A stretch of DNA of 16,425 bases from the NCBI GenBank assembly GCA_040225955.1, contig JBECUL010000048.1, positions 1 to 16,425 on the forward strand, given 5' to 3'. The notes beneath the pieces are model-generated. The model worked only from the letters and a program-made list of their open reading frames with translations, was not told the origin of the DNA and ran no database searches. Shown piece after piece: positions 1 through 7,102 of the stretch (position 1 is the first letter of the stretch; each line of letters opens with the position of its first letter). This DNA comes from Candidatus Asgardarchaeum abyssi. Lineage in GTDB: Archaea; Asgardarchaeota; Asgardarchaeia; Asgardarchaeales; Asgardarchaeaceae. A program made the position numbers and the translations under genes.

Positions 1-2014
1 ATAAATATTTGAAACTGTCAATAGTAAGAATTTTAGCCAAGCGTTTATTCAAAACTGCTACAATATCGCCCACATATTCTGAGGGAGTGGTAATTTCAAG
101 CTTTTGCCAAGGTTCCAATAAGGTTGGTTCACTCTCAAGAATTAAAGTCTTTACTTCACTGAAGACCTCATTTAATTCTATCAAATCTATTTTGTCAGTG
201 GGTAATAAAGAGCCGAATTCGGATATTTCAATAAGAATTCCATAACAAGGTTCTCCTACCAGCGGTCCTTTTTGAAGTATGAGATCTATAGTTGTTTTTA
301 TTTGTGGATATAAAGCTTCCGGTACAGTCTCTGAGTTATCAATAACTATGTTCTTATATTTTGGATTATAACCAATGATTGTTCCTTTCTCTAAAATTCC
401 ACATTCGCTAAGTATTTTTCTTATATCACCCGCTCTCTGAGATTCTATTTTTTGAATAAAACACTCATTTAAAGGAAGTACTCTGTATGTAAACTTTGTT
501 CCTTCTTTAGTTTCTTTACTGAGAAATCTACTTGATCTTAAAATACCTTCGCGATATAATACTATTGGACGACCTACCTCTACATATATGCCGGCTCTTT
601 GGAGTTTTTGTAAGAATATTTCTATTTGCAATTCACCCATCCCAGAAAGTAGCATTTCACCAGTATCTTTATTTATTGAAAATTCGATACCTGGTTCGGT
701 TTTAGCGAACTGCGAGATCATCTGCTGAACATAGTCATACTGTGAAAAATCAACAGGTTCTATAGATACCGTAACCACAGGTTCGGACACATAGCGTAAT
801 CTTTCAAATGGTTCAATATTTTTAAGTTCCGGAGAGACTATTGTTTCACCTACAATTATATCTTTAATACCTATAAAGACTACATGATTACCAGAAGAGA
901 CTTCACGTACTGGAATTTTTGATTTACCTATCACTACAGCAAGTTGATTAACTATGAAATCGTTTCCAGCATGAACCATATGTAATGCCTGTTTAACTTT
1001 TATTGTACCAGAAAAAACACGACCGGTGGCAATGAAACCGGCTTTTAAATCGTATTTAACATCATAAATGAATACAACAGGGGGCGCGTTTAAATCGCAC
1101 TCTATTAGAGCTTTTCCTATCTCTGAGGATAAATCCCCTTGCCAGATAATTGGAATTCTGGCCTTTTGAGCTTCTCGAGGATTTGGGATATGATCAATTA
1201 TCATCTCTAACACTGCTTTTCCGACAGGAAATCTTTCTGATAACTCCTTTACATTATTTTCTTTATATTGTGAATATACATATTTTAAGAAATCTTTTAA
1301 TATTTGTAAGAGCTCACTTGTTGATTTAACATCATTAATGGATTTTCCAGCCCATTCTAGAATATCTATCAAACGTACGCCCCATTTATCTTTCGCCGAG
1401 CCGAAAGCCACATTAAGTCTTAAAAAGGATACTCTCCAATTTTCTGATATTTTACTTTCTGAATACTTTTCTAATAAGATATTAAAGTTTCTAACAATAT
1501 CATTGATAGCTTTTAAAAAATCATCAGGATTTAGTCTCTTTTCCTTAATTAAGCGGTCTACTTTATTTATAAATAATACAGGTTTTACATATTCGCTCAG
1601 TGCTTGTCTTGTTACAGTCTCTGTTTGAACCATAACACCTTCAATGGCATCAATGACTACAAGAGCTCCATCTGAAGCTCTTAAACTACGTGTAACATAT
1701 CCAGAGAAATCTATGTGACCAGGTGTATCTATTAAGTTTATTATATATTCTTGTCCTTTGTATATATAGTGAATCACAGCATTTGCAGCTTTTATTGTTA
1801 TACCACGAGTTTGTTCAATCTGATCATAATCTAAATATCTAAGTTCAGAAGCTAACTTCTTTGAAATGAGACCTGATGCAGCTAATAAAGAATCACTCAA
1901 CGTTGTTTTCCCGTGGTCTATATGAGCAATTATAGTAACATTTCGAATGTTCTCTATGTTTTTCATTATAGGTAAGACCTTTTGCGTTATATATTTTCTA
2001 AAGAGGTGAGACAA
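1..2014 (-). CDS. Translation elongation factor 2 family GTPase, divergent paralog (aEF-2p-like); 3' end beyond the window
   Basis: Not in the ORF track. Manual translation is open for 671 codons: IRNVTIIAHIDHGKTTLSD (G1), EQTRGITIK (G2), NLIDTPGHIDF (G3), FINKVD (G4), AFGSA (G5), HIPNPREAQKARIPIIWQGD, GRVFSGT (domain II), EPVVTVSIEP and SGMGELQIE (domain III), GPLVGEP and PTLLEP (domains IV/V). The start is TTG at 2014 (the N-terminus RKYITQKVLPIMKN resembles archaeal EF-2) or ATG at 1966. Confidence 0.95.
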   Translation of the reverse strand, partial: MSHLFRKYITQKVLPIMKNIENIRNVTIIAHIDHGKTTLSDSLLAASGLISKKLASELRYLDYDQIEQTRGITIKAANAVIHYIYKGQEYIINLIDTPGHIDFSGYVTRSLRASDGALVVIDAIEGVMVQTETVTRQALSEYVKPVLFINKVDRLIKEKRLNPDDFLKAINDIVRNFNILLEKYSESKISENWRVSFLRLNVAFGSAKDKWGVRLIDILEWAGKSINDVKSTSELLQILKDFLKYVYSQYKENNVKELSERFPVGKAVLEMIIDHIPNPREAQKARIPIIWQGDLSSEIGKALIECDLNAPPVVFIYDVKYDLKAGFIATGRVFSGTIKVKQALHMVHAGNDFIVNQLAVVIGKSKIPVREVSSGNHVVFIGIKDIIVGETIVSPELKNIEPFERLRYVSEPVVTVSIEPVDFSQYDYVQQMISQFAKTEPGIEFSINKDTGEMLLSGMGELQIEIFLQKLQRAGIYVEVGRPIVLYREGILRSSRFLSKETKEGTKFTYRVLPLNECFIQKIESQRAGDIRKILSECGILEKGTIIGYNPKYKNIVIDNSETVPEALYPQIKTTIDLILQKGPLVGEPCYGILIEISEFGSLLPTDKIDLIELNEVFSEVKTLILESEPTLLEPWQKLEITTPSEYVGDIVAVLNKRLAKILTIDSFKYL

Positions 2015-2681: not shown

Positions 2682-2698
2682 GTTAACGAGTGATCCAA

Positions 2699-4063
2699 AT
2701 GGCAGAGATTACAATTGATTATCCTAATTTTCGATTTAATGACTTTATAAAAGTTCTTAAAGACAAAGTTAGAAAACTGGACTGGGCTATTATAGAGGAC
2801 TCCGAGGAAATACTTGATAGAAAATTTTCATTTGCAGCAACAAAGCATGGCGATTTAGTTGTCTTTACAGGGATACATGATATTGGTGAGGGATATAATA
2901 GAATAAAGATATTCATAATGGTTGATTTAAAAGCAATAAAGGCGACAATGACCGCCTTAGATGTAGGTACAAAGGTTTTAACAGCATTGGGAATAATAGC
3001 AACTGGTACAATAGGTTTTGCAGTAGCTGCTGGTAAATTTACATTCTCTAAGATACTGAATTTTAAAAAGAAAAAGGACTTAGAGAACTTCTGGAAGAAT
3101 GTTATTAAGGAGATTTTAGAAAAGGACTTAGAATATAAAGGATTATTAATCGAAGACTATGAAATAGGGCTTCCACAAATCAGTGATGAAGAAAGACTCT
3201 ATTGGAATAATGTTTATAAATCATACTTGGATTTACTCGAAATGAAACTAAGAAGAAAGCTTGTAAGTATGGCATTATGGGACGCAGGGAATAAAAAAGC
3301 TGATTCCAAAAGGAAAGAACCAAATGTCATGATTTATAGAGATAGATTATTTAGAGATGGAATTGTGGATATAGTTGGTTACGCAAAGCTTAAAGATGCT
3401 ATCCAGATGGTTTTTGTCTTTACGAATAGGAAGCCAACAGCAACCCCATTTACATTAGAAGAAATAGCATCTATCCTTAGAGGGGCCGATAGCTATGCTC
3501 ATTTTAAATTTGCGAATGAACAAAAACCAATTCAAACCACATGTATATTTATCTCTGCAACAACACCACCCTTCAGTCAGGATATCTGCAATTTCATTGA
3601 AACAAATTACTATGTCGTAGGAGATTTGGATAGCAAAGTTCCACTAATTTTCCTGATACCTCCTCTCGAAAAGAAAGTAGAAGAAAGAAAAAGAGTCGGC
3701 GAAAAAATGCCTTTTGGTGAAATGCTTGAAGGCATAATTCAGAAAGGCTTAGAGATTTTTTCAGGTATAGCTAAAGAAAGTATTTGGCACAATATCTACA
3801 GACCCTCAAAATACTCAATGCTTATATCAAAAATCAATAAAATACCGTTCTCAAATTTCTTAAAAATACCAGTTATGGAGGATGACACGCTTAAATATAG
3901 CTATGAGGGGCCTATAACAATAGAGAAATATCAACAGATAGTTGATAGATTTTTATTTGAGTGGGAAAATCTTCTAACACCACACACGGCTGCAAGGTAT
4001 CTTAATTTACAAAAGTTCTATGAGGCAAAATCCTTTGTCGAAGCTCAATTAAATTATGAATAA
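2699..4063 (+). CDS. Hypothetical protein with an N-terminal hydrophobic segment and a possible degenerate Mrr-like PD-(D/E)XK fold
   Basis: Long ORF filling the gap. ATG 2699 is preferred over the track's GTG 2690 because GAGTGAT then serves as the SD. The Gly/Ala-rich hydrophobic stretch is VLTALGIIATGTIGFAVAAG. The fold call is pattern-based only. Confidence 0.75.
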   Translation: MAEITIDYPNFRFNDFIKVLKDKVRKLDWAIIEDSEEILDRKFSFAATKHGDLVVFTGIHDIGEGYNRIKIFIMVDLKAIKATMTALDVGTKVLTALGIIATGTIGFAVAAGKFTFSKILNFKKKKDLENFWKNVIKEILEKDLEYKGLLIEDYEIGLPQISDEERLYWNNVYKSYLDLLEMKLRRKLVSMALWDAGNKKADSKRKEPNVMIYRDRLFRDGIVDIVGYAKLKDAIQMVFVFTNRKPTATPFTLEEIASILRGADSYAHFKFANEQKPIQTTCIFISATTPPFSQDICNFIETNYYVVGDLDSKVPLIFLIPPLEKKVEERKRVGEKMPFGEMLEGIIQKGLEIFSGIAKESIWHNIYRPSKYSMLISKINKIPFSNFLKIPVMEDDTLKYSYEGPITIEKYQQIVDRFLFEWENLLTPHTAARYLNLQKFYEAKSFVEAQLNYE

Positions 4064-4140: not shown

Positions 4141-5385
4141 ATGACAGAAAGATTATTTTTAGATAACGCATATCTGTTTAAATGCTCTGCGAAAGTGAGA
4201 ATGTTGAACATAAGAGAAGACGGGAAACTGGAGCTAATATTGAATAGGACAATATTTCATCCTAAAGGAAGTGGACAAATTAATGATATAGGATACATTA
4301 GAAGTGCCTCCTTTGAGGGGAAAGTTATCGATGTTGTAGAAGAGGGAGAAGATATCGTTCATGTGGTGGAAATTCTGAGAGGAGAAGCAAAAGAGAATGA
4401 TACAGTAGAGTGTGAAATTGATAGGAATAGAAGATATGCAATAATGAGAGCTCATACAGGGGAACATATACTAGCAAGAGCTTTTAAGAAAATAATACCA
4501 AATTCTGAAATTAAAGGAGTTTACTTAGAAGAGGACAGAGGATATATTATTGTTTCGGGTATTTCTAAGGCTGAAATTTGGAATCAAATTTCAAGAGCAG
4601 AAGAAATAGCTAATAAAGTTATTTCTGAGGGAAGAAAGGTTACTGTTAAGTATTATGACTCTCTGAGTGAGGCTATGAAGCATTATGGAAATTCTTTAAG
4701 ATGCAGGCTTGAGGAATTCGAGGGAATTAGCAGAGTTCGGATAGTTGAAATTGACAAATATGATTATACAGCATGTTCAGGGACTCATGTCAGCAATACT
4801 ATAGAAGTTCGTTTTGTAAAAATTACTGGATATGAAAAATACGACAAGACTTCATATAAACTTAGATTTTCAACGGGAGAAATAGCATTAAAGAGTGCCA
4901 TTAGGTTATCAAATTTATTATTGGAGTTATCTAGGGAGTTATCTACAAGCGAAAATCTAGTTAAAGAGACCGTTAATAATCTAGTTCTAAAGATTAAAGA
5001 TTTAACAAAACACCTAAAAAGATTATCAGCGAGTTATGTGAGAGCTTTAATTAAAATACAAAGGATTGTACATAAAGACCTGAAAATGAATGAAATTGAA
5101 ATTGAATATAGTGATTTGGGTGATTTAATTAAAATTTTAAAAGATGAACAAATTTTTGATGATAAACTACTTTGGATTTTTAGCATAAGGAACCCTAAGT
5201 CAGCAATTATAATTTCTGGGAGGTCAATTGAGGATTTAAACTTTAAGTCTCTTCTAAGAACTTTACAAGAGAACATTAAAGACGTTGGTGGCGTGAAAAG
5301 AAAAGAATTCATTCTACTTAACTTCAAAGATCCTAATCAAATGAGTAAGGCTATTCTCTTAATAAAGAAAGAATTAGAGAAATAA
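4141..5385 (+). CDS. alaX: Free-standing alanyl-tRNA editing protein, long form (AlaX-L)
   Basis: TIFHPKGSGQINDIG glycine-rich motif, zinc ligands HTGEH and CSGTH, a C-terminal helical/C-Ala-like extension and no aminoacylation domain; SD AGGTGAT upstream. Confidence 0.9.
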   Translation: MTERLFLDNAYLFKCSAKVRMLNIREDGKLELILNRTIFHPKGSGQINDIGYIRSASFEGKVIDVVEEGEDIVHVVEILRGEAKENDTVECEIDRNRRYAIMRAHTGEHILARAFKKIIPNSEIKGVYLEEDRGYIIVSGISKAEIWNQISRAEEIANKVISEGRKVTVKYYDSLSEAMKHYGNSLRCRLEEFEGISRVRIVEIDKYDYTACSGTHVSNTIEVRFVKITGYEKYDKTSYKLRFSTGEIALKSAIRLSNLLLELSRELSTSENLVKETVNNLVLKIKDLTKHLKRLSASYVRALIKIQRIVHKDLKMNEIEIEYSDLGDLIKILKDEQIFDDKLLWIFSIRNPKSAIIISGRSIEDLNFKSLLRTLQENIKDVGGVKRKEFILLNFKDPNQMSKAILLIKKELEK

Positions 5386-5386
5386 T

Positions 5387-7102
5387 TTATTCTTCTTCCT
5401 TTCTCTTCTTAAATAGAACACTCAACTTTTTTGAAAATATAGGTGTAGCAACGCCAACAGCAACACCTACAACAATTCCTATTACCAAGCCTAGCCATAG
5501 ATTGTCTTGTGCACTTTGCTTCCAGTATTCAACAAGATCATGATAAAATGTTGCATTGTTCTTAGCTTGGATATAATCAAACTTTAGATTTTCAAGTTCT
5601 TTCTTCGTTCTATCAAGCTCTTCTCTAGTCTCGTTAAGTAAACTTTGACTTTCGTTAAGGAGGGCTTTTGTTTCATTAAGTTCATCTTCTAATTGATCTA
5701 AATATGTGCCCATGGTTGCATTTGCTGCAGTTATTCTGTCTCTCATTTCGACAAGTTCTTCTCTCAAGTTTCTAAGCCGTTCAACAATATCTGTCTGGTT
5801 TAATGCTTCGGCTTCAGCAATTAATTCATCTATTGCATCTATAGCATCAGATAATTGAAACGCCACAATTTGTAATTGAACATCCAAGGAAATATGATAA
5901 GCATCTTCAAAGAGATAATGCTGTTTAACTTGGACCGAGTTTAAAAATAGATGGAGTTCAACATCATCTATATCTACATATACATTGGTTGGACTCGATG
6001 GATTATACGTTCCCGTCTTAGTTGAATTGTATACAGAGTGGGTTACTTCATCAACTATGCCCACCGTCATATAGAATTCAGATAATACCTCCGAGTAGGT
6101 TAAACTTCCATTGATAAATATTGTTGAATATCCTTTACCAGCCAAGTAAGCTTTAACTTTAGGATATCCACTTGTTCCTTTTCCAGTATCACCAAAAACA
6201 TCGATCATTTTTGCTATTCCGCCATCATATTCATTTGTAAAGTTGTCAAAGAGTATAAGATACTTAGATGCGTTAATCTCTGCATATGTTAGGACGAATC
6301 CCTTATCTGTATCTGGGTTTACTTCAAGGATTGTGTAGCTAAATATGGATGTCACTTTGCTTCCATTATAGTTGAGAAGATCATTTTGATCCCCAATTAA
6401 ATAACTATTTACGAAAATTGCTTTAGGATACTTTACAATTCTCTCAAAGAAAACATATGCTAAGAACTCAGAGCTGTTTAGAATAATATGAAGTTCGACA
6501 TCTGATGGATCAATTTCTACATTATTTGGATCAGATACATTAAAGAGCCCCGTTCCTGTTGAATTATATATCTTAAGGTCTGTATCATTTCTGAAACCAT
6601 ATGAGTAGAAAAATTCAATAGCCACATTTTCATACGCTTTTGTGTTGTTAAGATATACAGTTGCATTTCCCCATCCTGCTAAATGAGCAAATACTGTCGG
6701 AAATGAAGAGTCTCCATGACCGGTAGTTCCATGAAGTAGAATGTTTGTTGCAATACCCCCATCTTGCCAGCTTTCTTTTTGATAAAACGTTGTAACAATT
6801 ATGGTATATTCAGTTGATTCATTTTTATATTTTAAAAGTAAATAACCCTCATTTGATTTATAATCCACATTTATTACACTAAAAGCGCTAACATTCTTAA
6901 CATAAGTTGCATTCTCATCAAGTAAATTAGTTTCATTACCAAGTAATACTCCATCTTCAGCAATAATAAGAGAACCGAGAGAAATCATGTTCGTATTCGG
7001 ACTTTCATTGCTTACAGCCCAAACGTTTACCACACACGCATTTATTGTCATGAATAAAAGTAACCACAATGTTGCAAATGCGAAGATCTTTGACTTTTTC
7101 AT
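5387..7102 (-). CDS. Secreted, C-terminally membrane-anchored surface glycoprotein (two tandem domains plus coiled-coil stalk)
   Basis: Signal peptide MKKSKIFAFATLWLLLF..., internal duplication, coiled coil at aa ~410-533, TM helix LWLGLVIGIVVGVAVGVATPIF, basic tail, 22 N-x-S/T sequons by hand count; SD GGAGG. Confidence 0.85.
   Translation of the reverse strand: MKKSKIFAFATLWLLLFMTINACVVNVWAVSNESPNTNMISLGSLIIAEDGVLLGNETNLLDENATYVKNVSAFSVINVDYKSNEGYLLLKYKNESTEYTIIVTTFYQKESWQDGGIATNILLHGTTGHGDSSFPTVFAHLAGWGNATVYLNNTKAYENVAIEFFYSYGFRNDTDLKIYNSTGTGLFNVSDPNNVEIDPSDVELHIILNSSEFLAYVFFERIVKYPKAIFVNSYLIGDQNDLLNYNGSKVTSIFSYTILEVNPDTDKGFVLTYAEINASKYLILFDNFTNEYDGGIAKMIDVFGDTGKGTSGYPKVKAYLAGKGYSTIFINGSLTYSEVLSEFYMTVGIVDEVTHSVYNSTKTGTYNPSSPTNVYVDIDDVELHLFLNSVQVKQHYLFEDAYHISLDVQLQIVAFQLSDAIDAIDELIAEAEALNQTDIVERLRNLREELVEMRDRITAANATMGTYLDQLEDELNETKALLNESQSLLNETREELDRTKKELENLKFDYIQAKNNATFYHDLVEYWKQSAQDNLWLGLVIGIVVGVAVGVATPIFSKKLSVLFKKRKEEE
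5625..5685 (-). repeat. Three degenerate 21-nt coding repeats (heptads LNETKAL/LNESQSL/LNETREE)
   Basis: tcgttaag/tcgttaag/tcattaag recur at 5631, 5652 and 5673 on the + strand. Confidence 0.7.
5900..6970 (-). repeat. Protein-level tandem duplication of a ~180-aa domain
   Basis: DGGIA at aa 114/293, YNSTxTG at 179/358 and DVELH at 201/380, a constant offset of 179 aa. Confidence 0.9.

Follow-up and report, generated by a model that had tools for sequence, protein, structure and literature searches.

The EF-2 paralog gene at the contig end

The window analysed here, that is, the whole stretch of DNA under study, comprises the first 16425 bases of contig JBECUL010000048.1 (C48) of Candidatus Asgardarchaeum abyssi, whose metagenome-assembled genome (MAG) amounts to 2.64 Mb in 189 contigs and is 93.5% complete with 7.8% estimated contamination. 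On its minus strand, positions 2–2014 hold codons 1–671 of a 728-codon coding sequence (CDS) for a paralog of elongation factor 2 (EF-2), which starts with TTG at 2014–2012 and whose frame runs off the contig end. We assign this gene, with a probability of about 0.9, to aEF-2p as its Asgardarchaeia orthologue, aEF-2p being the partner of the diphthamide-less aEF-2 in the majority of Asgard archaea. An original prediction made for this DNA had pointed to such a second EF-2. That identification is right, and the class is not new, as it was published in 2018.

The five GTPase motifs were found on the minus strand at 1927–1904 (G1, AHIDHGKT), 1807–1793 (G2, RGITI), 1729–1715 (G3, DTPGH), 1567–1556 (G4, NKVD), and 1402–1391 (G5, GSAK). 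Across 47 aligned aEF-2p, aEF-2, and canonical EF-2 sequences, their key residues do not vary. The motifs thus lie where they had been predicted, in a G domain that is 49% identical to canonical EF-2, and the domain III motif GMGELQIE was likewise located exactly at 643–620. The 671-residue product gave Pfam matches to GTP_EFTU (2e-51), domain 2, EFG_III, and EFG_C. The NCBIfam model of aEF-2 (TIGR00490) was by far the best for this product, at 531.5 bits against a cut-off of 738.45. Membership in this canonical aEF-2 equivalog was rejected, since the 57 residues missing from the window cannot supply the remaining 207 bits. A phmmer search of PDB gave 440–494 bits for archaeal EF-2 (494 for 8hl1 and 485 for 5h7j), about 260–268 bits for eEF2, 218 for EFL1, and 206 for Snu114. 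An AlphaFold2 model of a 96% identical orthologue (predicted local distance difference test 88.8, predicted template-modelling score 0.79) showed the five-domain EF-2 fold, and its best Foldseek match was EF-2 of M. nitroreducens (Methanoperedens; 6u43) with a template-modelling score of 0.84 and 34% identity. The gene had been described as unannotated, which does not hold: the exact 671-residue product is already on record at NCBI as a partial CDS, and the closest named record, 'GTP-binding protein [Candidatus Asgardarchaeia archaeon]', contains an identical partial product.

The remainder of the gene was recovered by scanning the genome with TIGR00490, which detected 62 codons of an EF-2 C-terminus right where contig C75 begins. 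The plus strand of C75 holds the last 57 codons and the stop of the aEF-2p gene at approximately positions 17–190. The two contigs share a 14-nucleotide (nt) overlap, in which the minus strand of the window ends with ...tttcaaatatttat and C75 starts with tct-tttcaaatatttat-ataag..., so that the peptide FKYL is common to both and the reading frame is continuous. Uninterrupted 728-residue genes were found in two orthologous loci of public assemblies, L023 (96% amino-acid identity) and L024 (65%). At both loci a 238-residue Ras/Arf-like GTPase follows aEF-2p; on C75 this gene likewise stands downstream of the tail. The gene order around this tail agrees with three orthologous loci, and three public runs, from sediment or marine samples, supplied contigs that continue beyond base 1 of the window. 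On the overlap, reading frame, and synteny that support the C48–C75 join, the window gene is an intact 728-residue protein gene, with no stop or frameshift past the contig edge. The TTG start corresponds to an ATG at the matching codon of L024, and the N-terminal SHLF(R/K)K is conserved. A Shine–Dalgarno-like GAGGGGG lies at 2021–2027 on the minus strand, 6 nt upstream of the TTG, and L024 has GGAGG at a matching distance from its ATG; across both loci these motifs stand 6–9 nt upstream of the start. A scan for sigma-70 promoters and terminators gave matches at chance level, the model being uninformative for an archaeon.

The aEF-2p gene is under strong purifying selection. Compared with L023, the ratio of nonsynonymous to synonymous substitution rates (dN/dS) was 0.072 overall at a synonymous rate (dS) of 0.22, with 0.042, 0.031, 0.028, and 0.049 for domains G, II, III, and V, respectively. 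Domain IV gave 0.153, which is the highest of the five domains; the neighbouring HD gene gave 0.06. The same pattern is visible in the identities to the more distant L024, which are 73% in G, 64% in II, 78% in III, 39% in IV, and 72% in V. The relaxed selection that would speak for a decaying copy was hence not observed.

Assignment to the aEF-2p class

A second EF-2 was indeed found elsewhere in the genome, as the original prediction had anticipated. It is a bona fide aEF-2 of 798 residues encoded on the minus strand of contig C96 (L002:1144-3540); with TIGR00490 it scored 610 bits, also below the cut-off, and it shares 36% identity with the window protein. HEDPAHTRAGQ is the sequence of its diphthamide loop, in which R702 is replaced by T; this HxDxxH-T type is the usual one in Asgard archaea without diphthamide. 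A scan of the whole genome with TIGR00490 gave only this gene, the window gene on C48, and its tail on C75, so that no third EF-2 was detected. No match to dph2 (PF01866), dph5 (TIGR00522), or dph6 (PF01902) was obtained in the 93.5% complete genome, although archaeal control genomes did match; aIF6 is present on C22 and SBDS on C69. Contamination as the origin of one EF-2 copy was considered and is unsupported, since C48, C75, and C96 have a guanine-plus-cytosine (GC) content of 0.34–0.35 against a bin mean of 0.34 and rank midway in tetranucleotide distance.

These features agree with the published description of aEF-2p (Narrowe et al. 2018, PMC6143161), which was defined as a second EF-2 occurring in Asgard archaea and Korarchaeota that lack dph genes. 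Within the Korarchaeota it is listed for Kor 1/3, and some Bathyarchaeota have it as well (PMC6143161), a range given again by Eme et al. 2023 (PMC10307638). Members keep G1–G5 and lose the domain IV loops HxDxxHRG and SPHKHN, and the co-resident aEF-2 universally carries R702→T (PMC6143161). Among Asgard archaea, dph genes together with a single canonical EF-2 were reported for Hodarchaeales only (Eme et al. 2023, PMC10307638). The window protein belongs to the EF-2 family with G1–G5, has lost both decoding-centre loops of domain IV, co-occurs with an R702→T aEF-2 in a genome that gave no dph match, and branches with aEF-2p outside the aEF-2 clade. It also shares with the class of Narrowe et al. 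the five-domain EF-2 fold, the long tree branches, and a sister relationship to the Thor/Loki clade.

A comparison with 20 genomes of the same phylum, all related to this one only at phylum level, gave a consistent picture. Two full-length copies of the aEF-2 and aEF-2p kinds were present in 14 of them, and dph2 was detected only in G005, G016, and G011, which are the three with a single canonical EF-2 bearing HEDPVHRGPAQ. Two trees were constructed, one of 47 rows under LG+G4 and one of 57 rows under LG+C20+F+G4 with posterior mean site frequencies, the latter including named canonical EF-2s of archaea and rooted on bacterial EF-G. Support is given as the Shimodaira–Hasegawa-like approximate likelihood ratio test (SH-aLRT) from a quick search, and the rows comprised neither eEF2, EFL1, nor Snu114. 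Both trees agree. They place the C96 copy among the aEF-2s of two-copy lineages, whose clade has an SH-aLRT of 100. The window protein, its orthologues, and three metagenome proteins at 47–50% identity make up a clade of six rows (SH-aLRT 98–99), for which Thor/Loki aEF-2p is the sister clade (SH-aLRT 100). Deeper nodes are weak, as published. The tree thus bears out the expectation that the window protein groups with aEF-2p and the C96 protein with aEF-2. The subclade of the window protein is poorly sampled, because the genome relatives compared are related only at phylum level.

Several differences set this subclade, which consists of class Asgardarchaeia and metagenome relatives, apart from the Thor/Loki aEF-2p, to which its identity is 38–43%. 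Domain IV measures 156 residues in the window type and about 140 in Thor/Loki, and its tip carries a semi-conserved P..IDL(I/L).L in the window clade in place of the PETSW of Thor/Loki. Compared with other aEF-2p, the closest members of the window type have KR(L/N)AK for the domain V RRG, with an HD gene upstream and a Ras-like GTPase gene downstream.

Some further features of EF-2 genes were recorded in this survey. The C96 aEF-2 has a C-terminal extension of approximately 55 residues beyond the usual RKRKG end (…PEELPTPFSFKARMYPDPNYW…), which also occurs in the aEF-2s L038 (G019) and L043 (G010), of 801 and 802 residues, from two other families. These three form one clade (SH-aLRT 100), and their second domain IV loop has KC(T/P)E(G/S) instead of KSPN. 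In two genomes of one genus, the single canonical EF-2 (G005 L022, C1:442759-447441; G016 L047, C4:80100-83600) is split into two overlapping frames by a 29-nt GC-rich insert directly after DTPGHV of the G3 motif, and its excision restores ...DTPGHV-NFTGHVTRALRV.... This insert, which can form the hairpin GAGCC-GGCT-GGCTC in G005 and whose changes in G016 preserve pairing, looks like a tRNA-type mini-intron within a canonical EF-2. The aEF-2p of G010 (L042, C23:38000-41400) has a 31-nt insert within the switch-I motif RGITIK (…EEQRRG | insert | ITIKSANISL…). In G002 (L020/L039, C29) and G013 (L021/L041, C137), which belong to one Asgard genus, the EF-2 paralogs adjoin in divergent orientation approximately 1.2 kb apart. 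The paralog there has a stop-to-stop frame of 919–924 residues, far above the usual length, with a near-canonical SPN(S/H)YN loop; the diphthamide loop is not kept. An in-frame TAG was present in EF-2 paralogs of G018 (L019, L040) and G009 (L046), which may be due to stop-codon recoding, as reported in some Asgard lineages, or to sequencing error.

Remodelling of domain IV and possible function

The remodelled domain IV was located at 131–559 on the minus strand (residues ~486–628), and the 156 residues between its anchors compare with 167–168 in canonical EF-2. The diphthamide loop is replaced at 170–223 (minus strand, residues 598–615) by SEFGSLLPTDKIDLIELN, which has neither the His nor the Arg-Gly of the canonical (T/H)D..(L/I)HEDPVHRGPAQI. 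The second loop of this domain, at 485–520 on the same strand, reads SKETKEG-TKFTY against the canonical KSPNKHN. Mean identities to nine canonical EF-2s were evaluated for the window type and for its own aEF-2, which gave 49% versus 43% in G, 33% versus 32% in II, 41% versus 38% in III, 19% versus 35% in IV, and 32% versus 36% in V. Consistently, Pfam EFG_IV was not detected in the window type (13 bits, E 0.09), compared with 51.8 bits in its own aEF-2, while EFG_III and EFG_C gave normal scores. Judged by these comparisons, the special remodelling is confined to domain IV, with III and V no more diverged than in the genome's own aEF-2, and in G and III the paralog is nearer to canonical EF-2 than that aEF-2 is. 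Of the strong divergence of domains III–V put forward in the original prediction, only the domain IV part therefore stands. The replacement of RRG by KRLAK was located as predicted (46–32), but KR(L/N)AK is a property of the closest relatives only, other clade members having RRG or RREG. Canonical archaeal EF-2 (P. horikoshii 5h7j, S. acidocaldarius 8hl1, and M. nitroreducens 6u43) has the same fold and the same G, II, III, and V domains as the window protein, which differs from it in the absence of the diphthamide His, the SPNKHN loop, and a detectable EFG_IV.

The GTPase site is intact, domains II, III, and V are constrained, and the domain IV tip is rewritten yet constrained, from which we infer a non-translocase ribosomal GTPase. 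The same role, dependent on the ribosome, was deduced for aEF-2p by Narrowe et al. 2018 (PMC6143161). The window protein would dock at the ribosomal GTPase-associated centre like EF-2 and hydrolyse GTP there, but it would be unable to engage the decoding centre as a translocase, leaving tRNA–mRNA translocation to the C96 aEF-2. The power stroke of EF-2 is then probably used by aEF-2p for another task on the ribosome, and functions held by one aEF-2 in other archaea would be partitioned between two copies. With low confidence, we favour a job at the side of the large subunit or in clearing the ribosome, for example the release of aIF6 or the removal of a bound factor; back-translocation would be an alternative. 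The two copies appear to have diverged in a complementary manner, in which aEF-2p has kept a canonical G and III and lost the tip, while the genome's own aEF-2 has kept the tip and rewritten domain III, with GIDPLQIE at the site that reads GMGELHLE in canonical EF-2 and GMGELQIE in the paralog, together with the R702/E660 pair. Subfunctionalisation of a formerly bifunctional EF-2, which would make aEF-2p an archaeal functional analogue of EFL1 in releasing aIF6 and licensing 50S, or else a ribosome-clearing GTPase of another kind, is accordingly offered as a tentative and rather improbable proposal. If it is true, eukaryotes reached the same partition of EF-2 independently.

Several points weigh against the main reading of aEF-2p as a non-translocase ribosomal GTPase and against its favoured task. 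The GTPase activity and ribosome binding of aEF-2p are deduced from conservation only. Domains II and III of EF-2 and EF-G contact the small subunit, and their constraint in the window protein, which equals that of G, fits an action on the whole ribosome at least as well as one on the 50S subunit only. Nothing at the aEF-2p locus points to aIF6 or SBDS, which lie on C22 and C69, respectively. The genes conserved beside aEF-2p, which are an HD hydrolase, a 457-residue orphan, and a Ras-like GTPase, accompany it in a narrow clade only and suggest no ribosomal task. Finally, the co-residence of both copies is supported by composition and by the pattern in relatives, in a MAG with 7.8% estimated contamination.

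On a stricter form of the subfunctionalisation proposal, aEF-2p is the archaeal counterpart of EFL1: duplication would have passed the GTP-dependent release of aIF6 and the licensing of 50S to it and left aEF-2 as a pure translocase. The single aEF-2 of Sulfolobus releases aIF6 from the 50S subunit in a GTP-dependent manner (PMC8024482), so that a second function was open to partition, and both aIF6 and SBDS are present in the genome. The diverged domain IV faces the decoding centre, a site absent from free 50S, and the complementary divergence (G, 49% versus 43%; III, 41% versus 38%; GIDPLQIE in the own aEF-2) fits as well. Against this stand the missing synteny with aIF6 or SBDS, the tight constraint on domains II and III, and a domain IV that, to judge from its dN/dS of 0.15 and clade-specific motifs, is still used for something. 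We consider this version unlikely. EFL1 (Ria1) and Snu114 resemble the window protein as EF-2 paralogs that retain the GTPase in a non-translocase use, with EFL1 releasing eIF6, but they arose by independent duplications inside eukaryotes, and the analogy is functional only. Descent from these eukaryotic duplications was rejected by the PDB scores (218 and 206 bits versus 494 for aEF-2) and by the tree of Narrowe et al. 2018 (PMC6143161), in which EFL1 originates within the clade of eukaryotes. An EFL1-type insertion in domain II was not seen in the window protein.

It was also considered that aEF-2p offsets the loss of diphthamide on translating ribosomes, either through fidelity or back-translocation in the manner of LepA/EF4 or through rescue or protection in the manner of Tet(M). 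Such a role was proposed by Narrowe et al. 2018 (PMC6143161), and it agrees with the strict co-occurrence of the paralog with dph loss and an altered aEF-2 in the genomes searched, as well as with the constrained domains II and III, which fit 70S binding. However, Korarchaeum and Geoarchaea are among the archaea reported to lack both dph genes and the paralog (Narrowe et al. 2018, PMC6143161), and G007 of our set (99% complete, one copy) is a further dph-less case, so that the paralog is not required for life without diphthamide. The tip moreover varies by clade, with PETSW in Thor/Loki and xIDLLxL here, which is odd for a reader of the universally conserved decoding centre. This explanation is likewise doubtful. 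The bacterial EF-G paralogs Tet(M)/Tet(O), LepA/EF4, and BipA offer a parallel, as they keep the GTPase engine with a domain IV tip rewritten or replaced for a new ribosomal task; their identity to the window protein is ~30% or less, and its NCBIfam scores are far below their cut-offs.

A functionless decaying duplicate or an assembly or binning artefact, which the truncation at the contig end, the 7.8% contamination, and the fast-evolving domain IV might suggest, is scarcely credible and was refuted as far as sequence data allow, because the frame runs uninterrupted over its full length through C48 and C75 and in three orthologues, dN/dS is 0.072 at a dS of 0.22, no catalytic residue varies, the composition of the contigs is typical of the bin, and public contigs from three runs pass base 1 of the window.

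The role of aEF-2p, if it were known, would show how these cells translate without diphthamide and whether the task-splitting of EF-2 seen in eukaryotic EFL1 and Snu114 began in archaea. The window gene adds a distinct aEF-2p subclade placed in class Asgardarchaeia, and a member that is whole and strongly constrained with divergence confined to domain IV. This information is modest; the gene brings no new principle and raises no new question.

Gene neighbourhood

Directly upstream of aEF-2p, the minus strand encodes at 2020–2610 a 196-residue HD phosphohydrolase, for which the predicted HD identity was verified by a Pfam match of the HD_3/YfbR-like type. Its stop codon lies 5 nt ahead of the aEF-2p start, so that the two genes are probably co-transcribed, as judged from this spacing. 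The pair recurs with the same spacing in L023, L024, L025, and L050, while at L049 the HD gene is adjacent but divergent. Down to ~50% identity, orthologous loci repeat a block made up of the divergent 457-residue orphan, the HD gene, aEF-2p, and the Ras-like GTPase. Of five distinct loci in the clade of the window protein, four have aEF-2p flanked by the genes for the HD hydrolase and the Ras-like GTPase, whose orientation varies. The block was not found at the locus of one clade member (P0012), nor at the aEF-2p loci of Thor, Loki, and Odin. We read this neighbourhood as lineage synteny, in which an inherited order persists in a narrow clade, and not as a functional operon.

The downstream member of this block lies behind the aEF-2p tail on C75 (L010:284-1000) and is a 238-residue Ras/Roc/Arf-like small GTPase with an N-terminal extension of approximately 70 residues that carries a CxxC. 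Its place downstream of aEF-2p is conserved in the clade, and several further Ras/Arf-like genes are clustered nearby in L024 and L050. The 457-residue protein is encoded on the plus strand at 2690–4063, divergently from the HD/aEF-2p pair. It gave no Pfam or NCBIfam match, and one stretch of it, TKVLTALGIIATGTIGFAVAAGKF, is hydrophobic and rich in glycine. With the syntenic orphan in L050, where aEF-2p is ~50% identical, it shares 50% identity and is hence conserved in the lineage. The plus strand at 4141–5385 encodes a free-standing AlaX-type protein of 414 residues with an alanyl-tRNA editing domain and SAD, which matches the C-terminal half of archaeal AlaRS and scored 152 bits with the AlaXM equivalog against a cut-off of 300. 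A 571-residue protein follows at 5387–7102 on the minus strand; it has no Pfam domain and gave faint coiled-coil-type matches (SMC-related, E ~1e-4), and its position is conserved in L023 and L025.

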